From the IMG/VR virus record IMGVR_UViG_2737471829_000004: 42,039 nt of DNA. One strand, 5' to 3'. Each line of letters opens with the position of its first letter. Within the stretch, counting starts at the first letter, position 1. The position numbers and the translations under genes are program-made. The notes under the pieces are model-generated. The model was not told the origin of the DNA and searched no databases. It saw only the letters and a list, made by a program, of their open reading frames with translations. The stretch is from a virus. Taxonomy: Duplodnaviria; Heunggongvirae; Uroviricota; Caudoviricetes. This document shows, one piece after another, positions 4,239-42,039 of the stretch.

Positions 4239-5177
4239 ATGAATATTTCCGATATTCGCGCAGGACTGCGCACGCTTGTAGAAAATGAAGAAACCACCTT
4301 TAAACAAATTGCTCTTGAGAGCGGACTTTCTACCGGAACTATCAGTAGTTTTATCAATGATAAGTACAACGGGGATAACGAGCGTGTTTCACAAATTCTG
4401 CAACGCTGGCTGGAAAAATATCATGCAGTTGCAGAACTACCTGAACCGCCCCGCTTTGTGGAAACGCAGACGGTAAAACAAATCTGGACAAGTATGCGTT
4501 TTGCCAGCCTGACTGAAAGTATTGCTGTTGTATGTGGCAATCCTGGTGTGGGCAAAACCGAAGCGGCCCGTGAATATCGCCGCACCAATAACAATGTCTG
4601 GATGATCACCATTACGCCATCCTGTGCCAGCGTTCTTGAATGTCTTACTGAACTGGCGTTTGAGCTGGGAATGAATGACGCACCACGCCGTAAAGGGCCG
4701 CTCTCCCGCGCCCTGCGACGTCGCCTTGAAGGTACACAGGGGCTGGTTATCATCGACGAAGCTGATCATCTTGGTGCCGAAGTTCTGGAAGAACTCCGCC
4801 TGTTACAGGAATCAACCCGTATTGGCCTTGTGCTGATGGGAAATCACCGGGTTTATTCAAATATGACGGGGGGTAACAGAACGGTTGAATTTGCCCGTCT
4901 GTTTTCCCGTATTGCAAAGCGCACTGCAATTAATAAAACCAAAAAAGCCGATGTAAAAGCTATTGCGGATGCCTGGCAGATTAACGGCGAAAAAGAACTG
5001 GAGTTATTACAGCAGATTGCGCAGAAACCAGGTGCGCTTCGCATTCTGAATCATTCACTTCGCCTTGCCGCCATGACGGCTCACGGTAAAGGTGAGCGTG
5101 TTAACGCAGATTATCTGCGTCAGGCTTTCCGTGAATTAGACCTGGACGTTGATATTTCAACGCTGCTGCGTAATTAA
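4239..5177 (+). CDS. B: Transposition ATPase / target DNA activator B (MuB family)
   Basis: 312 aa with Walker A GNPGVGKT and Walker B VIIDEADHL; immediately downstream of A. Confidence 0.95.
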   Translation: MNISDIRAGLRTLVENEETTFKQIALESGLSTGTISSFINDKYNGDNERVSQILQRWLEKYHAVAELPEPPRFVETQTVKQIWTSMRFASLTESIAVVCGNPGVGKTEAAREYRRTNNNVWMITITPSCASVLECLTELAFELGMNDAPRRKGPLSRALRRRLEGTQGLVIIDEADHLGAEVLEELRLLQESTRIGLVLMGNHRVYSNMTGGNRTVEFARLFSRIAKRTAINKTKKADVKAIADAWQINGEKELELLQQIAQKPGALRILNHSLRLAAMTAHGKGERVNADYLRQAFRELDLDVDISTLLRN

Positions 5178-5192
5178 GAAGGAGAAGAAATT

Positions 5193-5420
5193 ATGATGGC
5201 CCGAAATATAAAAATGGCAACGGATGCGCAGAACTGGTTACAGGCGCGCGGGAGTCATGTAAATGAATCATATCTCGGCGTGGCGCGTCCGATTCTTGAA
5301 ATCACTTACCCACCGGTGGAACTGGTAAAAAACGCGGTCAGAATTATGGAGCATAAGTCCGGGGTGGCCCGTTCTGTATGGACGGCCCGTCTTAATGGTT
5401 GCCAGATTATCTGGAGATAA
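5193..5420 (+). CDS. Small early protein at the kil position (Kil-like by position and size only)
   Basis: 75-aa ORF directly after B with RBS aaggag upstream. Assignment is positional. Confidence 0.4.
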
Positions 5421-5422
5421 CG

Positions 5423-5653
5423 ATGTGTATTAAAGCCGAAAAATATATTGAATGGGTTAAACACTGTCAGTGCCACGGGGTGCCGCTGACGACATATAAA
5501 TGCCCCGGATGTGGTGAACAGATTATGACGCAATGCTCACCCGAAAAGGAAATTCGGGATTCCCTGACATGTTGTCCGTGGTGCAGCGCGGTTTTCTTTA
5601 AGCAGGTAAAAGGCGCGAAGGTAAAAGCCAGCGCAGTTATTCAGAATCAATAA
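5423..5653 (+). CDS. Cys-rich small early protein (putative zinc ribbon)
   Basis: ATG preceded by ggag; CPGCGEQ...CCPWC motif. The track ORF starts at 5399 overlapping the previous gene. Confidence 0.4.
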   Translation: MCIKAEKYIEWVKHCQCHGVPLTTYKCPGCGEQIMTQCSPEKEIRDSLTCCPWCSAVFFKQVKGAKVKASAVIQNQ

Positions 5654-5664
5654 GGAGAAACAAA

Positions 5665-5934
5665 ATGGCAAAGGTTATCTTTGAGTTTACATGGCTGGAA
5701 AGTAGTGACGGTTGCAATGGGCGCAGAGAAGTTCTGGATGCAAAAGCATGTCTTGCAGATATCTCGCCAACGGAAAATACCGGGCCTCATGATTTACTGG
5801 CAAATATCGTCCTGACTATGGCTCCTGAAATTATTAAAAAGGCCAAAGATGAGATGCTGACCACTATGAAGAAAGTGGGTATGGAGGCTGAATGTGATTT
5901 AGTACCACATCCGGTGAATGCGGTTAAACATTAA
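5665..5934 (+). CDS. Hypothetical early protein
   Basis: 89-aa ORF with strong RBS (aaggagaaacaaa ATG) in the co-directional early operon. Confidence 0.55.
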   Translation: MAKVIFEFTWLESSDGCNGRREVLDAKACLADISPTENTGPHDLLANIVLTMAPEIIKKAKDEMLTTMKKVGMEAECDLVPHPVNAVKH

Positions 5935-5954
5935 TTCGCAAAGGAGCGCTGACA

Positions 5955-6374
5955 ATGAACGTCAAAATCCGAAATGAAATTCAGGCATTAATCCGAATTC
6001 AGGAACGCAATAACAACGGTGGTGAATTACGCGAGTTTATTTGCGCCCGGAAAGTTGATGGTTGTGGTGAAAAGACTTACCTGATTGCTTTCGACCATTA
6101 CAGCATCTGTGCGCGTTATTGCGGCGAAAGCATATCCCGCGCCATTGCATTTGGCGGTGCGTTCAACGTGGATTTATGGGAGTACGTCATGGACCGGGAA
6201 TACATCTGCGCATCAGACCCTGAAGCCCGTGAAATGTGGCAGCGTATCTGGCGCGATTACCGGTTAATGGCAAAAGGCTGGGCGCGCTGCTGTTATTCCT
6301 CGCTTGCCCTGAAAGCGGTTCAGTTATCGCTACGGCATATTCCGGCATCACTGCGCGAGCCTCTGCTGTACTGA
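5955..6374 (+). CDS. Hypothetical early protein
   Basis: 139-aa ORF with RBS aaggag upstream, tightly packed in the early operon. Confidence 0.55.
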   Translation: MNVKIRNEIQALIRIQERNNNGGELREFICARKVDGCGEKTYLIAFDHYSICARYCGESISRAIAFGGAFNVDLWEYVMDREYICASDPEAREMWQRIWRDYRLMAKGWARCCYSSLALKAVQLSLRHIPASLREPLLY

Positions 6375-6674
6375 ATGGTGACTGACATGAAGTGTAATCG
6401 TAAGCGCTGGTCACGCGAAGACCGGGAATTTATCGAAGCCAACGTCGGAAAAATGACCGTTGAAGAAATGGCGGAAAAACTGAAAGTCGCCACAACCGCC
6501 CTCCGGGCACATGCCAGAAGGCACGGAATATCATTGTGTGTATACCGAATCAGTGAACACGACAAATATTTATGTCGTGAACTTTATAAAGAAGGACTGG
6601 ATATTCATGTCATTGCCCGAAAGATGGAATTAAGCAATCGAGCTGTATCCAGCATTGTATACAGCGGATATTAA
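6375..6674 (+). CDS. Hypothetical early protein with possible helix-turn-helix
   Basis: 99-aa ORF; segment MTVEEMAEKLKVATTALRAHARRHG resembles a DNA-binding HTH. Start uncertain (alternative ATG at 6387). Confidence 0.45.
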   Translation: MVTDMKCNRKRWSREDREFIEANVGKMTVEEMAEKLKVATTALRAHARRHGISLCVYRISEHDKYLCRELYKEGLDIHVIARKMELSNRAVSSIVYSGY

Positions 6675-6693
6675 TTAACAGGAGCTTTAATTT

Positions 6694-7218
6694 ATGGCTA
6701 AACCAGCAAAACGTATCAAAAGTGCCGCAGCGGCTTATGTGCCACAAAACCGCGATGCGGTGATTACCGATATTAAACGCATCGGGGATTTACAGCGCGA
6801 AGCATCACGTCTGGAAACGGAAATGAATGATGCCATCGCGGAAATTACGGAGAAATTTGCAGCCCGGATTGCACCGATTAAAACCGATATTGAAACCCTT
6901 TCAAAAGGTGTTCAGGGATGGTGTGAAGCGAACCGCGACGAACTGACAAACGGCGGCAAAGTGAAGACGGCGAATCTTGTCACCGGTGATGTATCGTGGC
7001 GGGTCCGTCCACCATCAGTAAGTATTCGTGGTATGGATGCAGTGATGGAAACGCTGGAGCGTCTTGGCCTGCAACGCTTTATTCGCACGAAGCAGGAAAT
7101 CAACAAGGAAGCGATTTTACTAGAACCGAAAGCGGTCGCAGGTGTTGCCGGAATTACAGTTAAATCGGGAATTGAAGATTTTTCCATTATTCCGTTTGAA
7201 CAGGAAGCCGGTATTTAA
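6694..7218 (+). CDS. gam: Gam, DNA-end-binding host-nuclease inhibitor
   Basis: 174 aa with RBS caggag; sequence recognised as Mu Gam-like. Confidence 0.85.
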   Translation: MAKPAKRIKSAAAAYVPQNRDAVITDIKRIGDLQREASRLETEMNDAIAEITEKFAARIAPIKTDIETLSKGVQGWCEANRDELTNGGKVKTANLVTGDVSWRVRPPSVSIRGMDAVMETLERLGLQRFIRTKQEINKEAILLEPKAVAGVAGITVKSGIEDFSIIPFEQEAGI

Positions 7219-7316
7219 TACCACCATTAATATTTAATTAATTCACATTCTTTTAATTATGGCGCGATGCGTCAGGGGATTGCTCGCGCCTGAAACAGAT
7301 TACTGAGGAATAAAAC

Positions 7317-7847
7317 ATGGTTGATGCAAAAATTCTGAATGGTGTCAGCACATTATTACGGGCTTACGGACGCCTGACCTGCGGAGTTCTGGCTGAAAAA
7401 ATGAAGATGCCTCCCTCATCAATGGTGTATTTCCTGCGTGATGCGGTTGATGTCGGCGTTCTCACCGAATGCAACGGATTTTATGACGTTCCGCGCCCGC
7501 GTCCGACGCCGCCTGTAAGACGAAACGCAACTGAGCAGCCTGCTGTTGATGATGCGGTGTGGTGCAACTGGCGTCGCTCATTACCCTGGGTGGAAGGTAA
7601 TACCATCCCCGCACTGGCAAAAGAGTTTGCGACAGGCGTACTGACCTGTGAGTCCGTTCACATCGTTGCAGAAGTGGATGACGAGATGTGCAAACAGGGA
7701 ATGCCACGTTTTGTGATGGCTTATATCGATATCCGGCTGGGGCGGTTTATTTGCAGTTCAAGCGCCTGGAATATCACCGACCATGTACTGCGTTATCTCA
7801 TTCTTGATTGTTCTCCGGCTCCCGTAGCGGTGCAGGAGGTGGCGTGA
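7317..7847 (+). CDS. Hypothetical early protein
   Basis: 176-aa ORF with RBS gaggaataaaac ATG. Confidence 0.5.
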   Translation: MVDAKILNGVSTLLRAYGRLTCGVLAEKMKMPPSSMVYFLRDAVDVGVLTECNGFYDVPRPRPTPPVRRNATEQPAVDDAVWCNWRRSLPWVEGNTIPALAKEFATGVLTCESVHIVAEVDDEMCKQGMPRFVMAYIDIRLGRFICSSSAWNITDHVLRYLILDCSPAPVAVQEVA

Positions 7848-8371
7848 TGTTTTTTAAAACGTCAAATCCCGCAGCACTGCTGGCGTGGGACCAGTTTATG
7901 GCGGACTGTCTGAAACTACGCGAAGAAGCCCGCCATCTTGATAAGGTTCTGGGTTGTGGTTGCCGGTCAGTATTCAGCACAGGTATTGGTGGGCGTTATT
8001 TTCATGGTGTGAACTTTCCGGGGAATGAGCGCCCTTTCTCGCGGGAGCTGTGGACCGTACAACGGCCCGCATCAGGTAACAGTTGCAGGCCTAGAACTTC
8101 GCGGATACCTGTTCATCTCAGGGAGCAGGCAAAAGAGCTGGCGAAAATATGGCAGGAGAATATTCCGGTCACTTATGCCCGCACAGATGCTCTTTTACCC
8201 GCACTGGGACTGGATTTCAGCGCAACAATATTCGGGCCGCTCCGGTGGTTCCGTGTTGGTGATGTGATTTACGTCATGACGGGGATGACACCCGCACAGG
8301 GCTGCATGACGGAAATCCTGTCCGATGAATTCATGAAGGCAAAGATTGCGTTAAAGGGGGCCGCTAAATGA
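7847..8371 (+). CDS. Hypothetical early protein
   Basis: ATG after aggagg; the track ORF starts at 7808 overlapping the previous gene. Confidence 0.45.
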   Translation: MFFKTSNPAALLAWDQFMADCLKLREEARHLDKVLGCGCRSVFSTGIGGRYFHGVNFPGNERPFSRELWTVQRPASGNSCRPRTSRIPVHLREQAKELAKIWQENIPVTYARTDALLPALGLDFSATIFGPLRWFRVGDVIYVMTGMTPAQGCMTEILSDEFMKAKIALKGAAK

Positions 8372-9036
8372 AAGAACGTGGCGTTGCTTTTAATGACGAT
8401 ATGGTCAGGGCAATTCTCGAAGGAAGAAAGACGCAAACACGCCGCCCGGTAAAAAATGTCGGACACGATAACTGTCTGGTTATCCATCGTAACGGTGTTT
8501 ATACCCACGTTATGGATGCACCTGAGCATGGTTTATGCCCGTTCGGTAACGTTGGTGATCGCATCTGGGTCCGTGAAGCGTGGGCAATATTAGGCAATGA
8601 GGATGGTTGCAGTGTGGACTGGAACGGCAACCTTTGTCATGGCGATGAGAAGAAGGCAGCAAGGATTTATCGGGCAAGTTGTGAACAAAAGCCTGGTGAT
8701 TACGGTCTGTGGTCAATACCTGATGATGCTGACTGGAAACCTCGCACTGTGAATGAAAAGTTTGATGGCAGGTGGTGCCCATCTATCCACATGCCGCGCT
8801 GGGCGTCGCGCATTCTGTTGGGAATAACCGACGTGCGTGTGGAACGGCTGCATGATATTAGCGAGGCAGATGCGAAAGCGGAAGGCGCATTTCCGGCGAC
8901 GTACAAAATTACGCCACCGGAAGCTGTTTATCGCGTTGGTTTTGGTGATATCTGGCGCGGTATTTATGGGCAAGATAACTGGCTGTCTAATCCGTGGGTA
9001 TGGGTAATTGAGTTTAAGCGTATTCAGGAAGCATAA
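8368..9036 (+). CDS. Hypothetical early protein, possible ASCH/PUA-like N-terminal motif
   Basis: 222-aa ORF; MVRAILEGRKTQTRR and GDRIWVREAW are reminiscent of ASCH-like domains. Recognition is tentative. Confidence 0.5.
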   Translation: MKERGVAFNDDMVRAILEGRKTQTRRPVKNVGHDNCLVIHRNGVYTHVMDAPEHGLCPFGNVGDRIWVREAWAILGNEDGCSVDWNGNLCHGDEKKAARIYRASCEQKPGDYGLWSIPDDADWKPRTVNEKFDGRWCPSIHMPRWASRILLGITDVRVERLHDISEADAKAEGAFPATYKITPPEAVYRVGFGDIWRGIYGQDNWLSNPWVWVIEFKRIQEA

Positions 9037-9038
9037 CT

Positions 9039-9380
9039 ATGAGCAAATCACTTAATGCACGTTGTATTCGCCGTTGGGAAGTCAGATTTAAGCCTGTTTG
9101 TGATTCAAAAGTTAGCCCTCACATGCGTAAAAGCTTTTTGCGTGGGGTGCGTGAATTAGGGCTTATTACGGCTGAAAACATGGTTGAAAGCATGGCTGAG
9201 AAAAACGCCAGGTTTGATTACGACGGCAAGGACACAGGCTGGTCACCGGAGTTTTCTAACTGGTATGCAACATGCCGAGAAAAGTATTGTAAAGAGGCCC
9301 GCGACTATCTGGATGAAGAAGTCACAAACGATGAGATCGATGAAGAAATCAGAACTGAGCTAGAGTATTGGAATGACTAA
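9039..9380 (+). CDS. Hypothetical early protein with acidic C-terminus
   Basis: 113-aa ORF, start coupled to the previous stop. Confidence 0.45.
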   Translation: MSKSLNARCIRRWEVRFKPVCDSKVSPHMRKSFLRGVRELGLITAENMVESMAEKNARFDYDGKDTGWSPEFSNWYATCREKYCKEARDYLDEEVTNDEIDEEIRTELEYWND

Positions 9381-9447
9381 TCTGGCCGATATGACCGGAA
9401 AGTGTTTCAGCGATACAAGCGGTGTGGTAGCACCGCTTTTTAAAGGT

Positions 9448-10005
9448 ATGATCATGAGTCGCACATCCCTGATTAAATTAATCCATGTCGCCCGTCGTGA
9501 TCTACAACTCGACGACGATACTTACCGCGCTTTTCTGATGCAGAAAACGGGCAAAATCAGTTGCCGCGAGCTGACGGTAACGCAACTGGAACAGGTGCTC
9601 GATGCCATGAAAGAACGCGGCTTTAAGAAGCTGAATAAACATCCACGTCGCCGCTTTAAGGGGCATGTCACGCCCCGCGAGAAGGTATACAAAGTCTGGC
9701 AGCAGATGGCAGAAGACGGTTTTATTACCGATGGCGGTGATGTGGCGCTGGATAAATATGTTCAGCGCCTGACGGCGAAACGTAATGGCGGACAGGGTGT
9801 TTCCACGCTGGCGTGGTGTCATGGCGACACCCTGTTGATTGTTCTCGAAACTCTCAAGCAGTGGCATATCCGCTGTATTCGTGAAGCCTTTTCCCGTCAC
9901 GGGCTTCCGTTGCCGGTCAGTCCGTCCGGGCGTGAACTGCGCGGCTATGATGCCATGACGGCGGCTTATGCCCATGCCAGAAAGACACGGAGGATGGCAC
10001 AATGA
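9448..10005 (+). CDS. gemA: GemA-like early protein
   Basis: Placed directly upstream of mor as in Mu; family recognised by position and size. Start chosen at an internal ATG; the track ORF starts at 9373. Confidence 0.55.
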   Translation: MIMSRTSLIKLIHVARRDLQLDDDTYRAFLMQKTGKISCRELTVTQLEQVLDAMKERGFKKLNKHPRRRFKGHVTPREKVYKVWQQMAEDGFITDGGDVALDKYVQRLTAKRNGGQGVSTLAWCHGDTLLIVLETLKQWHIRCIREAFSRHGLPLPVSPSGRELRGYDAMTAAYAHARKTRRMAQ

Positions 10006-10391
10006 CGGAAGATTTATTTGGTGATTTGCAGGATGACACCATCCTGGCACATCTTGACAATCCCGCAGAGGATACGTCACGCTTTCCGGCACTGCTGGCG
10101 GAGCTGAACGATTTACTGCGCGGGGAATTGTCCCGGCTGGGTGTTGATCCTGCCCATTCACTGGAGATTGTAGTGGCTATCTGTAAGCATCTGGGCGGCG
10201 GTCAGGTCTACATTCCACGCGGTCAGGTTCTGGACTCGCTGATTCGGGATTTGCGTATCTGGAATGATTTTAACGGTCGCAACGTCAGCGAACTGACCAC
10301 CCGTTATGGTGTCACTTTCAATACGGTTTACAAGGCCATTCGCCGGATGCGACGGCTGAAATACCGCCAGTACCAGCCCTCACTTCTGTAA
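10002..10391 (+). CDS. mor: Mor, middle-operon transcription activator
   Basis: 129 aa; C-terminal GGGQVYIP..FNGRN..EL motif is shared with the C-like protein downstream. Followed by a terminator. Confidence 0.85.
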   Translation: MTEDLFGDLQDDTILAHLDNPAEDTSRFPALLAELNDLLRGELSRLGVDPAHSLEIVVAICKHLGGGQVYIPRGQVLDSLIRDLRIWNDFNGRNVSELTTRYGVTFNTVYKAIRRMRRLKYRQYQPSLL

Positions 10392-10398
10392 ACAGTAA

Positions 10399-10421
10399 AG
10401 CCGGTTAATCCGGCTTTTTTT
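10399..10421 (+). terminator. Rho-independent terminator after mor
   Basis: Hairpin agccgg-ttaat-ccggct followed by a T7 run. Confidence 0.7.
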
Positions 10422-10468
10422 ACGTCCTCAATATCCTGTGATGAATAACCGTACCGGGGGAAATCATC

Positions 10469-10699
10469 ATGGGTAAAGGCTGGAATGCATCCTTTCATCT
10501 TGGCAGACGTGAGCGGCTGCGTCAGGAGGTTTTGCACCGTGTCGCCGGTGGGCCTCGGCCTTCGCCCCGCGACTATACCGGTCATGATGGCACCCACGGC
10601 AGTTATTACATGAAAGGCTGGCAGTCAGTTGATATGCCGGAAATTCTTCACCACTGTCAACGTTATAAGGAAAAATATTGTGTACAGAAAATTCAGTGA
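10469..10699 (+). CDS. Possible small ORF between mor and C
   Basis: 76-aa ORF with a weak RBS; lies in the region expected to carry the middle promoter, so it may be non-coding. Confidence 0.25.
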   Translation: MGKGWNASFHLGRRERLRQEVLHRVAGGPRPSPRDYTGHDGTHGSYYMKGWQSVDMPEILHHCQRYKEKYCVQKIQ

Positions 10700-32306: not shown

Positions 32307-33661
32307 TGTTTTATATTGATAACGACAGCGGCGTAACCGTCATGCCGCCCGTATCCGCCCAGCGTAGTGCTATCGTTCGCTGGTTTTCAGAAGGTGACGG
32401 GAATAATGTTATCACATGGCCCGGCATGGACTGGTTTAATATTGTTCAGGCGGAGTTATTAAACACGCTGGAAGAAGCTGGTATTCAACCGGATAAAACA
32501 AAATTAAACCAGCTTGCACTGTCCATTAAAGCCATTATGAGCAATAACGCGCTGCTGATAAAAAATAACCTCAGCGAAATTAAAACTGCCGGGGCATCAG
32601 CACAGCGTACAGCACGTGAAAATCTGGATATCTATGATGCCAGCCTGAACAAAAAAGGACTCGTTCAGCTAACCAGTGCCACTGACAGCCCCAGTGAAAC
32701 GCTGGCAGCCACCGCAAAAGCGGTGAAAATTGCGATGGATAATGCCAATGCCCGTCTGGCAAAAGACCGGAACGGAGCAGATATTCCCAATAAGCCGCTG
32801 TTTATCCAAAACCTCGGTTTACAGGAAACGGTAAACAAGGCTGGTAACGCTGTTCAGCGTTCTGGCGATACAATGACCGGAAAACTGAATCTACCACAGA
32901 CATCTGCATTCGGCGTTAATACCGATAATGCACTGGGTGGTAATTCCATTACTCTCGGAGATAACGACACCGGTATTAAACAGGGCGGCGATGGTGTCCT
33001 TTTATTCTATTTAAATGGACAACTGATATTTGGGCTTCAACCCACATCCGCTGATTTTTATAAGCGAGTTGCCTACATTCATCAGGGAGTAGCTCCAGAT
33101 GGGAGTGGCGCATTTGCAGACCAGTTAAATAATGCCACCGCGCCTTTTGTTCAGACGCAGTTTGCCTGGAATCCCACTCCTGGCGGTCATTACGTACCGA
33201 TAGCTAAGGGCTTGTCCATTCGCAATGGACAGGGGTATCCAGGTGCGGTCAGCTTTGGTTATTTACTAACTGAACAAATGGGATTTCCCATACCATGCAT
33301 TCATATGCGTGGAGATTACGGAGCTGATGCTTTGTGGCAGTTTAACCCGAACGATAAATCTTTTATTTCACCGGGTGCTCTTGTTGCGGGTGGCATCCGT
33401 TATAACACCGATGGAAATATATTTGGCGGGTGTTGGGGTTCAAATTTAGCTGATTATCTCAATAGCACATATGTAAGAGACATTCGACTTGGTAGCGCAG
33501 AATCAATATCAGCATGGCGAGGCCCTGGTTACTGGGATACTTCTGGATATGTTCTGACCGCAGCCGGAAACAGCAACACCGATGAATTTATTGATACATT
33601 AACCAGAAGGCCTATTCAGAAGTTGATTGGTGGGACATATTATAACGTTGTGAGTATTTGA
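32306..33661 (+). CDS. S: Tail fibre protein S (constant part fused to the variable part in the current G orientation)
   Basis: 451 aa; the reading frame runs through the left gix site at about codon 165; the variable part shares motifs with S' (NALGG.SI.LGDNDTG.KQ.GDG). Confidence 0.85.
32801..32826. repeat. gix recombination site (left), inside S
   Basis: ttatccaaaacctcggtttacaggaa; its inverted partner at about 35635-35660 is identical in 25 of 26 positions. Confidence 0.85.
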
Positions 33662-33662
33662 C

Positions 33663-34190
33663 ATGATGCATTTAAAAAACATTAAAGCAGGGAACCCAAA
33701 AACACCTGAACAATACCAGTTAACCAAAAAAGCTGGAGTGGTCTGGCTTTATACTGAAGATGGTAAAAACTGGTACGAAGAACAAAAAAACTTTCAACCA
33801 GATACTATAAAAATTGCATACGATAAAAATAATGTGATTGTTACCGTAAGCAAAGATGTTTCAACGATTAACCCGGAAGGTTTAAGTGTTGTTGAAGTAT
33901 CCGATATTACGGCAAATCGTCGCGCAGACAATAACGGAAACTGGATGTTTCTGGATGGTAAAGTAGTAAAGCGGGAATATACAAAACAGGAGCTGCAACA
34001 GCAGGCAGAGTTACAAAAATCCGCTTTGCTTTCCGAAGCGGAGTCTGTGATTCAACCGCTGGAACGTGCTGTCAGGCTGAATATGGCAACTAATGAGGAA
34101 CGCGCACGACTGGAGTCATGGGAACGCTACAGTGTTCTGGTCAGCCGTGTGGATACGGCAAATCCTGAATGGCCACAAAAGCCTGAATAA
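33663..34190 (+). CDS. U: Tail fibre assembly protein U
   Basis: 175 aa beginning [23 protein letters not shown], paralogous to U' on the opposite strand. Confidence 0.85.
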
Positions 34191-34218
34191 AAATTAAGGC
34201 CCGATAGCGGGCCTTGTC

Positions 34219-34752
34219 TCATTCTGGTTGTTCCGGGAATGTTACAGGAAGAACAGAGGTATCTGTGGCATCAACCTGCTGCATGTATAACATCCAGTTA
34301 ATGAGTCTTTGCCTGTCTGAATCGCTGATAATTCCCAGCGCAAGCTGTGTTTGCCAGCACTGCGTTTCCTCTCTGGCCTGTCGCAGCAAAATCTGTTTCT
34401 GAATTTCAGCCAGTTGACGTAGTTCTTCATCAGTCCGGGGGCGTTTCATGACCTTGCCATCCTGAAACACCCAGTCACCGAGAATATCGGCCCGGCGATT
34501 CGCTGTCGTGTCGGGTAATTCGACAACGCTCATTCCTTCCGGGTTAATAGACGACACATCTTTTTCAATATAGCGAATGATACCTCTGTCATCGTAAGCG
34601 ATTTTTAGTGTGTCTGCCTGAAAGGCTTTTTGTGCCTCATACCAGTTCTGACCATCTTCAGCGTAAAGCCAGATAACACCATGTCTCTTTGTTAACTCAT
34701 ACTGTTCCAGTGTTTTAGCATTACCCGCTTTTATGTTCTTTAAGTGCATCAT
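34219..34752 (-). CDS. U': Alternative tail fibre assembly protein U'
   Basis: 177 aa beginning [25 protein letters not shown], paralog of U in inverted orientation. Confidence 0.85.
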   Translation of the reverse strand: MMHLKNIKAGNAKTLEQYELTKRHGVIWLYAEDGQNWYEAQKAFQADTLKIAYDDRGIIRYIEKDVSSINPEGMSVVELPDTTANRRADILGDWVFQDGKVMKRPRTDEELRQLAEIQKQILLRQAREETQCWQTQLALGIISDSDRQRLINWMLYMQQVDATDTSVLPVTFPEQPE

Positions 34753-34753
34753 A

Positions 34754-35634
34754 TTAAACGCTCGCTACATTATACCAGGTGCCATTTATATACTTTTGAA
34801 CGGGTCTGTAATAAACGCCCGCTATATTATCGGCAGAGTTGGACCCTGTATCCTGAACATTAATACCAGACAATACATGACCTGACGGGCACTTGAAATT
34901 CCATGTTTGCCAGTTGTTCACACCATGATATTGCTGTGAACCAAGACGAACATCTTTTACGTATCGGGAATCAAAGTTACTCCAGTTACTTGGTTGTATG
35001 TGACCGTTTACAGCAAATATCACCGAATTATCTGTATTTCGCTGACTATAGAAATGCCAGCCTGAATCATCACCAAGCTCTGCAACAGTTGGTCTTGATG
35101 AAGTGCCCCATAAATTAAAACCTACGTTTTTCGTGGAGTTGTTGGAGCTGGATAGCGTGAATTTTTTACCATCCCCGGCCTGAACGTTTTTAAAAGCAAT
35201 AGCAACTCCATTCTGAAAGCGGAATACTCGCTGACTATTAGCGTAAACATCCAGAATACCGTCTCCATTCTGTTTAAATCCGGTATCATTATCACCAAGA
35301 ACAATAGAGCTACCACCTAACGCATTCGTCGTACCAACTCCAAGGCTGCCATTAATGACGGCATTAACAAGAATATTTAGTGCATCCCATTTCAGCGTCA
35401 TCAGGTCTTTTGTTGTGGTGCTTTGTTTGCTTCTCCATTTGAAATATTCATTGCCGTTGTCGCCTGTTTCAAACCACATGTATGAATCAGTGTCACCATC
35501 GGCATCATTTTTAAATCCAATCTTCGCCCAGTCAGTATTTCGAATCCAGGCAAGGATTGAGTCATTTTCAAAAGTAAGCCCACCGGACAAAGTATCGCCA
35601 TTTTTTTGCACGGCATTACCAGCCCTGTTTACCG
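34754..35634 (-). CDS. S': Alternative tail fibre variable part S' (no independent start; expressed only after G inversion)
   Basis: Open frame from the right gix site to 34754; upstream sequence ..[20 protein letters not shown].. parallels the S junction ..[20 protein letters not shown]... Confidence 0.8.
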
Positions 35635-36580: not shown

Positions 36581-37247
36581 GTATGAAGGCCAGATTGTTG
36601 GCTATGGTTCAAAGGAGCTGCGCGTTGAAACCATATCCTGCTGGCTGGCCCGCACAATTATTCAGACAAAGCACTATTCCCGCCGTTTTGTGAATAACTC
36701 TTACCTCCACCTGGGAGTGTTCAGCGGACGCGATCTGGTTGGCGTTCTCCAGTGGGGATATGCCCTTAACCCCAACTCAGGTCGTCGTGTCGTGCTTGAA
36801 ACGGATAACCGGGGCTATATGGAGTTGAATCGCATGTGGCTACACGACGACATGCCCCGCAACTCTGAATCACGGGCCATCAGCTACGCGCTGAAAGTTA
36901 TCAGATTACTGTATCCGTCAGTGGAGTGGGTTCAGTCCTTTGCTGACGAACGCTGCGGACGCGCAGGCGTTGTGTATCAGGCGTCGAATTTTGATTTTAT
37001 TGGCAGCCATGAAAGCACGTTCTACGAGCTGGATGGTGAGTGGTATCACGAGATAACGATGAACGCAATTAAGCGCGGTGGACAACGAGGCGTGTATTTA
37101 CGGGCTAATAAAGAGCGTGCCGTGGTGCACAAATTTAATCAGTATCGCTACATCAGGTTCCTGAACAAGCGAGCAAGGAAGCGACTAAATACTAATCTAT
37201 TCAGGATCCAACCATATCCAAAATCAACTCTGACTAGTATCAAATAA
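36501..37247 (+). CDS. mom: Mom, DNA adenine modification enzyme (anti-restriction)
   Basis: Sequence from [33 protein letters not shown] onward recognised as Mu Mom; last gene before the right end. The true start codon is uncertain. Confidence 0.85.
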
Positions 37248-37306
37248 CTTATTTATTCCTGCTGAAAAGCAGCTCCTCATGGCATAAAATTGTTCACGTG
37301 AGTTTA

Positions 37307-37344
37307 AAATGACCAAATGGCAGTACAGTATTTGGTCATTTTAT
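37307..37344 (+). terminator. Hairpin downstream of mom
   Basis: 12-bp inverted repeat aaaatgaccaaa...tttggtcatttt with a large loop, followed by T residues. Confidence 0.45.
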
Positions 37345-37376
37345 GGGGTGAATTTTAAAGTCAAAACGATGGTAAG

Positions 37377-37718
37377 GTGCATATGAAAAAAATACTCATA
37401 GCAGTACTACTTTGCTTTGGTGTTCTTTCTGCTAATCAGGCAATAGCGGCTGTTACCTTAAGCGGTAAGTATCCTGCATGCATATCTGCTAATGAATTCG
37501 AGCGATTAAGCTCAATTTTGCAACACGAAGATCAAGAGGCGTTTGAAGAGATCTTTAAGACATCATGCTTTATGCCTAAAAAGGGGGTTAAAGTTGATAA
37601 AGTTGTTTCTATGGGGTGGACCAGTGGAGTTGCGCATGTCAAAGTTTATGTAAAAGGCAATCTTTACGATCTTTGGACTAACACCGAAAATCTTCAGTCC
37701 GAGAAGGCTGGTAAATAA
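37377..37718 (+). CDS. Small secreted protein of unknown function (cargo/moron candidate)
   Basis: 113 aa; signal peptide MKKILIAVLLCFGVLSANQAIA-AV; RBS aaggtg 5 nt upstream; locally AT-rich; lies inside the prophage between mom and attR. Confidence 0.5.
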   Translation: MHMKKILIAVLLCFGVLSANQAIAAVTLSGKYPACISANEFERLSSILQHEDQEAFEEIFKTSCFMPKKGVKVDKVVSMGWTSGVAHVKVYVKGNLYDLWTNTENLQSEKAGK

Positions 37719-37899
37719 CGCTGTAATCAACGTGTAATCACATCTCCTACCAGCTATCGCCTGATAAAGTTAGGTGATAGCTATTTCAATACTCTCTAGT
37801 TTCACTGAAAGCACGAAACTTAATACCTCCATTCCAGATTGCTTAATAATCGAGCATTTTTATCTTGAATGTTTTTGCGCGCTTTATCAGCCATACCCT

Positions 37900-38020: not shown

Positions 38021-38025
38021 CATGC
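38021..38025. repeat. Target-site duplication, right copy (CATGC)
   Basis: Identical to 919-923. Confidence 0.8.
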
Positions 38026-40850
38026 TCTTCCGTCACCCGGCCGCAGTTATCCAGAACATAAAGATATGATTCACCCTGCGGGTTAATGACTTCTGTCAGT
38101 TGCAGCGTGTCTTTATCGTAGCGGTACTGCCAGCGGTGGCCTTCACCGTCCGTTCGCGCCACCGGCAAATCGAACGGGCCGTACTCCATTGTCCAGACAA
38201 CACCATTGCCGTCCGTGTACGCCAGCAGGTTGCCGTGGCGGTCATAGCGAAATCCTTCCGCGCCGGTTCCAGCACGTTCAATGCCGCTCAGTTTATGGTG
38301 CTGCTGCCACTGTAACCGCACTGACTGACCGCCGGGGCCGCGCATCTTCACCGGCAGGTCGTGACCGCTGTATTCGGTGTGGTGTTCACGGCCCATCACG
38401 TCGGTGAGTGTTTCCGGCCGGTTGTGGTGGTCGTACTCTATGCCCAGACGCCGTTCATCCTGGCGGAATATTCCCGACAACAGCCCCTGAGCGGTGTACG
38501 CCAGCCGGGTCTCTTCGCCCTGTGGCGACACCAGGCTTACCGGCAGGCCGCGTTCATCGCACAGCTGTGTCCACGTCTGCCCGGCAGGGTCGGTGATGTT
38601 GCTGAACAGGCCGTGCTCATCATAGCGGTACAACCACTCCGCGCCGTCTGCCGCCGTGTAACGGCTTAACTGACCGTGTGCGGCGTTGTATTCAAACTTC
38701 TCCACCCGCCCGGCAGGGGAGTGGCGGGCCAGCAGGTGATGGAATTCATCCCATTCATACGTGGTGGTGCTGCCGTCCGGCGCTTCTTCCCGCAGAATAT
38801 TGCCGTCAGGATCATAGTAATAACGGTGAATGCCCTTGCCGTCCGTCACGGTGGTGCAGCCGTCACCATAGTCCAGCGTGGCGTTGTAATAGCCCTCCGC
38901 CCCGGTGACATTCACGCACCGGCCCTGTGCATCGTAGGTGAAACGGCTCCACGTCTGGTCGTTATCGGACCAGCGGATGATCCGGTCCGCAGCGTCGTAC
39001 TCATAAAACAGGTGGTAGTCCAGCCGCGCATCCGCTTCTGTCAGCCGCCCCCGCGCATCCTGTTCGTAGGTCGCCAGCGTCTGTATGCCGTTATCCGTGC
39101 GGTGAATGGCTTTCAGGTAGCCGCTGGCATGGTACGTCAGTTTAAGCCGGATCCCGTCGGTGTGACTGACACCCGTGATCCGGTACTGGCTGTCGCGCTC
39201 AAACGTGATGCGGTTGCTGGCGGTGTCACTCATCCCGCCCAGCATATACATCCGGTCACCGGGGCTGTGTGCCAGGCGGTCATCGCTGGTATCGTCAGTC
39301 ACCGGGTGGCGCAGACGCATTCCCGGAAAGGCGTCATAAAAGAAGCGGCTGCTCAGGGCATCACGGTCGAACAGCTCCAGGTAATCATCACGGCGGCGCA
39401 GGATGTACTGGGCGTGATACGGGTTAACCGCCGTATCACTTTCACCGTCGAAGGCGAAGTTCAGCGTGGCTCCCAGGCTGATGATATCCACCCGGTTTCC
39501 CTGTTCACGCACCCAGGCGTATTCGCTCCAGGAGTCGCTCCAGCCCACGCCGGTCAGGCCATGCAGCGGCAGTACAGAACTGTGGAAACGGGTGAAGGAG
39601 AGGGGGAGTGTCTGGCCCAGGGTGAAGTCGGTACGTTCGTCGCAGTACGCGCCGGTTACCGGATCGACAGGATCTGTTACCCATCTGATGACTTTATTGG
39701 CAATACTTTTTAACGACTTACCTGTTTTCCCCAGCAACGCGCCGAGCTTTGCCCCCAGCAGCTTCCCGCTTTTCCCCAGCAGGTTCCCCAGTTTGCCGAG
39801 TCTCGCCAGATTCTTCAGTTTTCCCAGCAGTCCCGCTGGCGGCAGAAGATAGCTGGCTATCGTTATTCCCCCCAGGATCATTCTCTGCCACGGCGGGAAC
39901 TCCGGCTGGATATCCAGATAGGTCACCTGCTCACCGCTAATAAAGACGTCCGGCGAACCTCCCACGATTGCTGCGCTGCACTCCAGTTTGTCGCCCTGGC
40001 GTGCGGCAGGCTGATTGTTGATAAAGACGTTGCTGCTGCCCTGGGCTATCCTCGGTGGTTTGTTCTCCTTGTCGCAGAGCGCCGTGTCCTCACCGGCTTC
40101 CGGGAAATCCACATCTTTTTTGATTTCGCCACGCCCGCCCACCATGGTGGCAAACTCCATTAATACCGGACCGGCGGGAAACAGAAGCGATGCGCCGGCG
40201 CTGACGCGATCCATAAAACCGGCATTGCTGTCCGTCAGGGTGATAACAGCGTTCCCCCAGGCCTTCGCCAGTGGTACTGCTTTTTCCGCTGCCGATTCAA
40301 GCAGGTCAGTGGCAATATCACCCCATGAGGGTTCCCCCTGTGGGACTTCAGGTATTGCTCCAGGTGGGGGAGGAGGGGGAAGGGTGACGGCGGCCCTGGC
40401 AGCGGGCTTTCCGTTAATTTTTACGTTTTCAGAACCGGTATTGATGGCGCCGTCCGTGTCACAAAAACTGTTTATCCATGACTCAAGCTGGTTCTGTTTC
40501 TCCTCCACATAATCACTCGCCTTATAGCTGGCATACATCAGCGCAGGCACCAGAACCAGCGCATAAGGGCCGGTGGCACAGGCGGCCATAATCAGGCAAC
40601 CTTCTGCGATGGTCACTATCGCCCCCAGCACGGCCCCTGCCAGCGCCCCCAAAAAACTCTTGTGCTGAATTTCATCGCCCAGCCTGGCGGCGGGGGGGCC
40701 AGACTTTTTTGATGCCAGCATCTGTGCAATGGCTTTGTCGTTGGCTGCCCGTTTCATCTGGCTGGCGACCATCGCCTGCTGTGACAGCATTCGCATTGCC
40801 AGCGTACCGCCTGCGGTCGCTCCCTGTGGCCCGCCTGGTCCTTCACTCAT
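38021..40850 (-). CDS. prePAAR-TM-PAAR-Rhs T6SS effector, 5' portion (943 codons), interrupted by the prophage
   Basis: N-terminal AARLGDEIQH (prePAAR motif AARxxDxxxH), hydrophobic helices (FLGALAGAVLGAIVTIAEGCLIMAACATGPYALVLVPALMY), PAAR-like motifs (VKINGKPAARAAV, VFINNQPAARQGD) and many YD repeats. The track ORF continues to 37887 by reading about 44 codons into the Mu right end. Confidence 0.8.
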
Positions 40851-40869
40851 GTGTTATCCCTCGTTTATG

Positions 40870-41331
40870 TCAGCGCGGCTGGTCCTTTTGGATGTCATTC
40901 TCCGGTGGCAACGGGGTGAAGCTCTTTATCACCTCCAGCAGCATCGTCTTTTGACTGTTCTTCAGGGATAAGGAGGTGCTGAAAGTGAAGGTCAGCAGCG
41001 TATCTCCACGCCGCTGGAATACGGCTATCTGGCTAATCCGCCCCTGATTCCCCTCATCTTCCGGACCGTTCCAGGAATAATCCAGCAGCCAGGCCGGGGC
41101 CTCTGCCAGAGTGATTTCCCGGCAGGCATGTTCGGTGTACCCATCAAGTTTGCCCTGGTACAGCGCCAGCGTTTCCTGGTACAGCTCTGGTGTCAGGGTT
41201 CCCTGTGGAACGGCTTCGCGGGTAATGACCAGGTTGATGCCACTGTTATCTGTGGACACCAGGACCTGCATTGACTGATCCTGCCATTGAGACGGCAGTT
41301 GAATGTGGCCTTCATTAAAAGTGAACTGCAT
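40870..41331 (-). CDS. DUF1795-family (Eag-type) chaperone for the prePAAR effector
   Basis: 153-aa ORF between vgrG and the rhs effector; sequence resembles DUF1795 proteins; the gene order is the canonical vgrG-eag-rhs arrangement. Confidence 0.7.
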   Translation of the reverse strand: MQFTFNEGHIQLPSQWQDQSMQVLVSTDNSGINLVITREAVPQGTLTPELYQETLALYQGKLDGYTEHACREITLAEAPAWLLDYSWNGPEDEGNQGRISQIAVFQRRGDTLLTFTFSTSLSLKNSQKTMLLEVIKSFTPLPPENDIQKDQPR

Positions 41332-41358
41332 AAAATACTCCCTGATAATCTGAGTGAA

Positions 41359-42039
41359 TCAGTTGATGAAAACAGAACCGCCCACGATGGTGATGCCATC
41401 CTTCGACAGCCTGATTACCGTCGATTCCCCGACCTGTAGCTGAATGCCATCCGGCGTCAGCGCAATTTTGCTTTCCTCCACGGCCAGCAAAATTTCCTTA
41501 ATCGCCGTATAAGCCTGTATACCGTCGCCTTCGCCACCATTGTTTACAGCGTCAACATGCACCGAACCGGCAATCGTGCCTCTGTCCTGAAAGACATCCT
41601 CAGATAAAGACCCTTTCAGTACTCCGGTGATCTTGTGGCCTTTTTCCACCGTAAGAAGGCGGTTACCTTCCTGGATCGTGACCGTCTGGTCATTTTTTAC
41701 GGTTTCGCGGTGATCGTGTTTTACGGTGGTGGTACGGTCGTTGAGCACTTCGGTATCCATGTTCTTCTGCGCGTGGATGTAGACCTGTTCTCTCCCTGTC
41801 GCATCATCAAACTTCAGCTCATTAAATCCGCTGCCCATGTACGTTTTGGAGCGGATGGTCATCTGCGTCTTTGTTCCCGGCAGGCTGCCGGGGGTGCGGT
41901 TTTCCTGGTGGTAGGTGCGCCCCATAATGATCGGCTGGTCCGGATCGCCGTTGAGGAAGTCTACAATCACCTCCTGACCCACACGCGGTATCGCCAGGTG
42001 GCCAAAACCGGTGCCTGCCCACGCCTGTGCCACACGGAT
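41359..42039 (-). CDS. vgrG: VgrG (T6SS spike), C-terminal part; 5' end lies beyond the window
   Basis: Contains the conserved gp5-like motif GQEVIVDFLNGDPDQPIIMGRTYH and downstream beta-helix-like repeats; the frame is open to the window edge. Confidence 0.85.
   Translation of the reverse strand: MRVAQAWAGTGFGHLAIPRVGQEVIVDFLNGDPDQPIIMGRTYHQENRTPGSLPGTKTQMTIRSKTYMGSGFNELKFDDATGREQVYIHAQKNMDTEVLNDRTTTVKHDHRETVKNDQTVTIQEGNRLLTVEKGHKITGVLKGSLSEDVFQDRGTIAGSVHVDAVNNGGEGDGIQAYTAIKEILLAVEESKIALTPDGIQLQVGESTVIRLSKDGITIVGGSVFIN

Follow-up and report, generated by a model that had tools for sequence, protein, structure and literature searches.

The early region between B and gemA

We analyzed a 42,039-nt stretch of viral DNA (IMG/VR record IMGVR_UViG_2737471829_000004, Caudoviricetes), referred to here as the window, which contains a complete Mu-family prophage. 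By homology to phage Mu (NC_000929), the prophage extends from position 924 (Mu position 1) to 38020 (Mu 36717). This report concerns its early region at 5193-9380, which lies between the transposition gene B, ending at 5177, and gemA. The early region is of a known kind with a variant cassette. Ten open reading frames (ORFs) occupy it, nine small ones and gam, all on the plus strand (Table 1). Most of the region is the classical, long-known early region of Mu and is not new. The exceptions are the gene in the gp7 position and the last two ORFs, which belong to a 1.1-kb cassette, and the first cassette gene is predicted to encode a YqfB-type amidohydrolase.

A preliminary description of this DNA reported nine tightly packed small ORFs besides gam, several with good ribosome-binding sites, and these were found to be real. 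Coding density is 96.4%, and successive ORFs are separated by 2, 11, 20, 0, 19, 98, -1, -4, and 2 nt. Nine of the ten starts have an AG-rich sequence resembling a Shine-Dalgarno site upstream. The one start that lacks it is the gp9 ATG at 6375; RefSeq places the gp9 start at 6387, which is as plausible. Each of the ten products matched a PHROGs phage protein family (E 6e-36 to 9e-106). The gp6 ORF was left uncalled by the Prokaryotic Genome Annotation Pipeline (PGAP) in Escherichia coli 2014C-3075, which carries the same phage. Chance ORFs were ruled out by the orthologues, the ribosome-binding sites, and the ratios of nonsynonymous to synonymous substitution (dN/dS) described below.

The region was compared with the annotated genomes of Mu, D108, SfMu, and Yersinia phage Tongde, and protein identities to Mu and D108 were obtained by tblastn. 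Position, strand, gene order, and operon context were the same as in the semi-essential early region of Mu and D108, and the preliminary description was correct in placing the ORFs between B and gemA, in the early and dispensable part of a transposable phage genome. Six of the small ORFs (kil, gp6/E5, gp8/E7, gp9/E8, gp11, and gp12) are Mu orthologues with 95-100% amino acid identity and follow the Mu order. DNA identity to Mu is 97-98% across 5193-5684 and 5940-8334. The functions of the Mu semi-essential region, which lies on the early Pe transcript, have been called "largely unknown" (PMC3820752), and a literature search on Mu gp6 to gp12 found no functional study. The statement that no ORF could be assigned a function is mostly right, with the exception of the first ORF, kil, which has a described function (PHROG 2743, 'Kil protein for bacterial septation inhibition', E 2.8e-43). 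The ORFs are also not all orthologues of characterized housekeeping genes, since the Mu orthologues are themselves uncharacterized.

Table 1. Features of the early region and the genes that follow it. Positions are those of the window.
Feature	Position	Strand	Length	Closest match or remark
kil (Mu gp5)	5193..5420	+	75 aa	Mu Kil, 100% amino acid identity
gp6 (Mu E5), Cys-rich putative zinc ribbon	5423..5653	+	76 aa	Mu gp6, 100%; PHROG 3786, E 1e-40
gp7-slot gene	5665..5934	+	89 aa	family other than Mu gp7
gp8 (Mu E7)	5955..6374	+	139 aa	Mu gp8, 96%; PHROG 3690, E 6e-97
gp9 (Mu E8), putative DNA-binding protein of the helix-turn-helix (HTH) type	6375..6674	+	99 aa (95 aa from 6387)	Mu gp9, 100%
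gam, host nuclease inhibitor binding double-stranded DNA ends	6694..7218	+	174 aa	Mu Gam, 100%; Pfam Phage_Mu_Gam, E 4e-42
gp11	7317..7847	+	176 aa	Mu gp11, 95%; Pfam Gp11_C (PF25754), E 2.5e-40
gp12	7847..8371	+	174 aa	Mu gp12, 95% over residues 1-166; PHROG 2314, E 3e-77
Non-Mu cassette, two genes	8335..9412	.	1078 bp	fills the gp12-gemA slot instead of Mu gp13, gp14, gp15
PmgT-family ASCH-fold protein, predicted YqfB-type amidohydrolase	8368..9036	+	222 aa	
Helical protein	9039..9380	+	113 aa	
gemA	9454-10005	+		RefSeq annotation of identical prophage
mor	10002-10391	+		RefSeq annotation of identical prophage

The comparison of gene content left two places where the region departs from Mu. 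The first is the gp7 slot, which is of the D108 type. Its protein is 40% identical to gp7 of D108 and shows no similarity to Mu gp7; the alleles of the window and D108 belong to PHROG 2230, and Mu gp7 belongs to PHROG 10252. The DNA departs from Mu here at 5685-5939. The second is the slot between gp12 and gemA, where gp13 to gp15 of Mu are replaced by two unrelated genes. Homology to Mu ends at 8334 (Mu 7441), 43 nt short of the gp12 end, and restarts at 9413 (Mu 8188), so that the final ~12 codons of gp12 are not from Mu. No homologue of Mu gp7, gp13, gp14, or gp15 was found anywhere in the window by tblastn. The preliminary description had proposed the whole region as the most plausible seat of a novel function, for which there is weak support, as six of the nine small ORFs are standard Mu genes. 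Attention shifts to the cassette and the gp7 slot.

The two flanks of the gp12-gemA slot were joined and used as a query against complete E. coli genomes. Closely related prophages were found in 39 of these genomes, and the flanks were spaced by ~274, 750 (Mu type), 839, 1054, or 1078 bp. These several spacing classes show that the gp12-gemA position is an exchangeable slot. The 1078-bp form was present in eight complete E. coli genomes and in phage PhiR68_1, which is 96.6% identical to the window across 5193-9380. The pair of cassette genes is also found in the 49.5-kb phage-plasmid pE500002_49 (89% nucleotide identity), within an accessory region where their neighbors are genes for a Ref nuclease, DUF1064, DUF3560, and ead/Ea22-like proteins. 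The shared segment reaches from 14 nt upstream of the first ATG to the stop codon of the second gene, and the cassette was presumably acquired by recombination. In comparison with the pE500002_49 copy, dN/dS was 0.06 for the first gene and 0.20 for the second, indicating that both are functional coding genes under purifying selection. Separately, an extra DUF5420 gene lies between gam and gp11 in Shigella phage SfMu (L008:4605-5159) and in some E. coli prophages, making this position a third variable site in the early region of Mu relatives.

The two cassette proteins

The ATG of the first cassette gene overlaps the gp12 stop codon (ATGA). Its 222-amino-acid (aa) product is 64.6% identical to PmgT of phage P1 over 95% of its length and matched PHROG 874 (E 3.9e-86). 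It has in common with P1 PmgT and this PHROG an N-terminal GRKTQTRR, a PSIHMPRWASR segment, and a C-terminal NPWVWVIEFKR, and those proteins are likewise standalone and of ~200-240 aa. PHROG 874 covers P1/P7-like and ~48-kb phage-plasmids as well as Pseudomonas, Vibrio, Salinibacter, and Roseburia phages, and homologues of the 222-aa protein were also found in Flavobacterium and many other phages. More than 8000 clusters at 90% identity share words with the query, and an exhaustive scan found 30,923 clusters at 50% identity that match it at E <= 1e-10. Among the matches listed, nearly all were standalone proteins of 170-250 aa. In P1, pmgT is located in a hypervariable region beside a polynucleotide kinase/phosphatase-like gene and not in an early transposition operon.

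The preliminary description had noted a possible ASCH-like motif in this protein, and the AlphaFold2 model has an ASCH/PUA-like beta-barrel fold. The barrel is interrupted by a family-specific insertion of ~80 residues that carries a W-x-PSIHMP[RK] motif. We compared the protein with E. coli YqfB, an N4-acetylcytidine (ac4C) amidohydrolase consisting of a single compact ASCH domain of 103 residues (PDB 9kyf/1te7). The N-termini align in register, residues 5-31 on residues 5-31. An octapeptide G-x-K-x-x-[E/T/S]-x-R is present as G19-R-K21-T-Q-T24-R-R26, which is near-invariant in the family and corresponds to G-R-K21-T-I-T24-I-R26 of YqfB. In a multiple alignment with distant phage homologues, E172 was placed opposite Glu74 of YqfB. 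In the PmgT family, sampled by 146 cluster representatives, K21 was conserved in all 146, T24 in 143, R26 in 144, and E172 in 142. Conservation is likewise high for the W-x-P-S-I-H-M-P-R motif that immediately precedes the central strand (126 of 146 have H141), and the segment from E172 to the last strands varies in length and sequence across the family.

The mechanism proposed for YqfB uses a Thr-Lys-Glu triad with an Arg forming the oxyanion hole; Ala substitutions of Lys21, Thr24, or Arg26 inactivate the enzyme, and Glu74Ala impairs it 100- to 1000-fold (PMC6972931). Judging from the alignments, the 222-aa protein retains this triad and the Arg as K21, T24, E172, and R26, and we therefore propose that it hydrolyzes N-acyl nucleobases. 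In a 2026 preprint, 19 of 19 ASCH proteins tested removed ac4C from transfer RNA (tRNA), and the YqfB-type octapeptide is given as G-K-[T/S]-R. The GKER-type ASCH proteins reported as tRNA ac4C erasers (Thermus thermophilus ASCH, human TRIP4-ASCH, and EOLA1) belong to the same fold superfamily and have the conserved Lys and Arg at the same octapeptide positions. In them, Glu occupies the position of Thr24 in the PmgT family, and the preprint suggests that their catalysis is arranged differently. What carries over from this analysis is a prediction for the PmgT-family phage proteins, namely that they are YqfB-type amidohydrolases. It offers a lead beyond this locus, as the very common PmgT-like phage proteins labelled 'morphogenetic' or 'hypothetical' retain the residues that the YqfB ac4C amidohydrolase uses for catalysis. 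A zinc site in the insertion was also considered and is unlikely, as the Cys residues of the insertion are not conserved in distant homologues.

Several results weigh against this assignment. Pfam ASCH (PF04266), DUF3850 (PF12961), and the NCBIfam models did not match the 222-aa protein (Pfam E <= 0.1); PF04266 did match some relatives, with hits to three of ten aligned sequences, YqfB itself being one of those ten. Against PDB sequences, the protein alone gave a weak ASC-1 match (E 0.012) and the family profile gave nothing. The hhalign probability to YqfB was 13%, over 27 columns only. The AlphaFold2 model is mediocre, with a predicted local distance difference test score (pLDDT) of 64 from a shallow alignment of 35 close homologues; confidence was ~78-91 for residues 20-68 and 148-218 and below 50 for the insertion at 69-147. 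Two further YqfB residues are not matched well: His70 aligns with Asp168, and position 200, the equivalent of Tyr89, is occupied by Tyr in 59 of the 146 representatives and by Asn in 68. The protein is also twice the size of YqfB, and its insertion, with a conserved motif of its own, could change the shape of the pocket; the substrate could differ widely. Finally, a search of the literature on PmgT and phage ASCH proteins found no experiment on a member of the PmgT family.

The second cassette gene encodes a 113-aa protein whose N-terminal half is basic and whose C-terminal helix is acidic and highly conserved. Its AlphaFold2 model is all-helical and confident (pLDDT 91.5), with no fold match, and the protein gave no Pfam or NCBIfam match. 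The family is small, with ~205 clusters that are almost all from Enterobacterales, and homologues are located in the accessory region between recT/dam and int of lambdoid prophages. A PmgT-like gene directly adjoins the 113-aa gene in 6 of 21 species-level loci, together with a Klebsiella prophage type, the window, and pE500002_49. The two genes occur in either order and mostly overlap or lie less than 15 nt apart, and the paired ASCH copies are 32-43% identical to the 222-aa protein, apart from the pE500002_49 copy (92%). In no case was an ASCH gene found elsewhere within 4 kb on either side of a 113-aa-family gene. These data suggest that the 113-aa and PmgT-like genes are functionally linked. 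On the other hand, about two thirds of the loci of the 113-aa family have no PmgT neighbor.

Two individual PmgT-like genes stood out in the context survey. A copy in a Silvania confinis prophage (L033:4829-5461), 475 bp from a 113-aa-family gene, lacks K21, T24, E172, and the His of PSIHMPR; it may be an inactivated or repurposed paralogue. In the P1-like phage-plasmid MH445380 (L004:4288-5714), a PmgT-like gene directly follows a gene annotated as 3'-phosphatase/5'-polynucleotide kinase. This RNA-repair-type neighbor, which was not seen in the other contexts examined, is a lead toward a tRNA-related role.

Possible roles of the cassette

The reading we favor, and consider rather probable, is that 5193-9380 is the semi-essential early region of Mu with a swapped cassette, whose first gene product is a YqfB-type nucleobase hydrolase. 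The region appears to share a transcript with its early neighbors B, gemA, and mor. Kil is the killer of cell division and septation, and Gam guards the ends of DNA against host nucleases. The 222-aa protein would, early in the lytic cycle, hydrolyze an N-acyl group from a nucleobase, a candidate substrate being N4-acetylcytosine in a free nucleoside or in tRNA. The acidic-tailed helical 113-aa protein may act together with this enzyme. Of this reading, the identities of the genes, the limits of the cassette, the fold, and the conservation of the residues have been shown; the activity of the enzyme, its substrate, a partnership of the two proteins, and a benefit to the phage are inferred.

A bolder possibility, which we hold to be doubtful, is that the PmgT-family ASCH protein, possibly with the 113-aa protein, acts as a phage-encoded eraser that removes N-acyl marks from the host's tRNA or nucleic acid. 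Such an eraser might strip ac4C from tRNA and so reprogram translation, or it might undo acetylation by a GNAT-type toxin or defense system. If true, this would give a biochemical function and a role in infection to a family that is among the largest uncharacterized ones of phage accessory proteins (~31,000 clusters at 50% identity, E <= 1e-10). PhiR68_1 has the same cassette, and its recorded host is E. coli C, which makes it a tractable system for asking if a phage removes nucleobase acylation during infection. The only paper found for PhiR68 deals with a different phage, PhiR68.2, and with another topic.

Another possible explanation is a reader function without catalysis, in which the 222-aa protein binds modified bases of DNA or RNA and, for instance, shields or senses methylation and similar marks, like the EVE, YTH, and SRA members of the PUA-like superfamily. 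Homologues do lie near genes for DNA methyltransferases, dCMP deaminase, and Lar-like proteins (LESphi3, Roseburia phage Jekyll, and pE500002_49), but methyltransferase neighbors are common in early accessory regions of phages generally. A pure binder would not be expected to retain all four catalytic residues of YqfB, which are near-invariant family-wide, and every ASCH protein tested in the 2026 preprint was an active deacetylase. A reader is, therefore, unlikely.

It is also possible, with a similarly low probability, that the region or its two variable slots form an anti-defense island, in which the gp7-slot protein, the PmgT-like enzyme, and the 113-aa protein neutralize host immunity. 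One option for the mechanism would be the reversal of base or aminoacyl-tRNA acetylation by GNAT-type toxins. The genes are expressed early and are dispensable, two slots of the region are polymorphic, and the region already has one counter to host nucleases in Gam. In addition, the part of P1-like phage-plasmids that contains pmgT is hypervariable (PMC9603915). ASCH genes are found with almost every (PIN)-GNAT-EVE operon (PMC7641849), so that a phage ASCH deacylase might undo GNAT-type acetylation. However, the argument is one of position and variability only, no evidence of anti-defense activity was found, and literature searches returned no functional data or phenotype. No ORF resembled a known defense protein, nor was homology to a known anti-defense protein found, though no library of anti-defense proteins was available for the search. 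PADLOC gave two chance-level matches, both to gp9; as it covers defense and not anti-defense proteins, its silence is uninformative.

A virion role is very improbable: the 'Morphogenetic protein' in the UniRef/NCBI names of several homologues, and the 'putative morphogenetic function' of P1 pmgT, go back to the legacy pmg names and are almost certainly a naming artefact, since the gene sits in an early operon upstream of mor, is absent from the complete genomes of Mu, D108, SfMu, and Tongde, could be replaced in a P1-like element with lysogeny unaffected (PMC9603915), and has a predicted fold that fits a small enzyme rather than a structural protein.

Other early genes and the remainder of the prophage

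Scans of the ten proteins against Pfam, NCBIfam, and PADLOC returned only Gam, Gp11_C, and weak HTH and zinc-ribbon matches. The two other proteins singled out in the preliminary description held up at the level claimed for them. The Cys-rich, zinc-ribbon-like protein is gp6, which has nine Cys residues and CPGC and CPWC knuckles (C27xxC30...C53xxC56). Zinc-ribbon hidden Markov models matched it below threshold (TIGR02605, E 0.0023, 18 bits with a cut-off of 31.3; NF047912, E 0.0047, 16.8 bits with a cut-off of 37). The possible HTH protein is gp9, which matched PHROG 323, 'transcriptional regulator, D5-like' (E 5e-29), and several Pfam and NCBIfam HTH models, all below their cut-offs. Pfam, NCBIfam, and PDB sequence searches gave no match to gp8 beyond chance-level PDB rows, and PDB sequence searches with gp11 and gp12 likewise gave chance-level matches only.

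No Rfam match was found in 4800-10600, and repeat searches yielded nothing beyond short, chance-level pairs. Promoter and terminator sites were no more common than in shuffled sequence, except for a terminator past mor, and no convincing promoter or terminator was found inside the early region. The strongest terminator-like hairpin of the scan is at 10397-10417, directly after mor, and D108 carries an annotated terminator at the equivalent place. A GC-rich hairpin followed by TTTTT was noted at 9420-9441, at the right edge of the cassette and just upstream of gemA. Its stem is kept in Mu, where CCCCTTT replaces the T-run. In the variant described here, the hairpin may act as an attenuator ahead of gemA.

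The insertion site of the prophage is an RHS-repeat toxin gene (rhs), to which both flanks, at 1-923 and 38021-42039, belong. Both junctions show CATGC as a 5-bp target duplication, which fits Mu transposition. In E. coli 2014C-3075 the same phage, 100% identical across 5193-9380, sits in ddpA; the rhs flanks show that the window does not come from that locus. The presence of the same phage in rhs and ddpA indicates recent transposition or independent lysogenization. The left junction was absent from all complete E. coli genomes of the collection.

Outside the early region, further differences from Mu were observed. The immunity region at 1383-2361 (repressor 1263-1781 on the minus strand, ner-like gene 1970-2197, and the start of A) has no DNA homology to Mu. 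The repressor still has the DNA-binding domain of Mu (PF02316), and the product of the ner-like gene has an HTH_35 match. This divergence in sequence implies a heteroimmune relative of Mu. Near ~10683 there is a deletion of Mu E19 (Mu 9463-9831), leaving an ORF at 10469-10699 whose 76-aa product is 92% identical to Mu E18, and a gp20 homologue comes next. The invertible G-segment tail-fiber region at 32881-35623 is in places only ~70-73% identical to Mu or unaligned, which suggests another receptor specificity. One tail-fiber fragment of the twin prophage in 2014C-3075 is labelled partial by RefSeq.

Lastly, a 664-bp insert of low GC content (38%) lies at 37223-37886, between mom and the right end of Mu, and Mu lacks it. 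It has an ORF at 37377-37718 on the plus strand for another 113-aa protein, whose N-terminus resembles a signal peptide; the protein matched neither Pfam nor PHROGs, and its homologues form just 13 clusters. Of 5426 complete E. coli genomes, only 2014C-3075 contains the DNA of the insert, and no phage record has it. The insert looks like a rare moron, and it may be more unusual than the early region itself.

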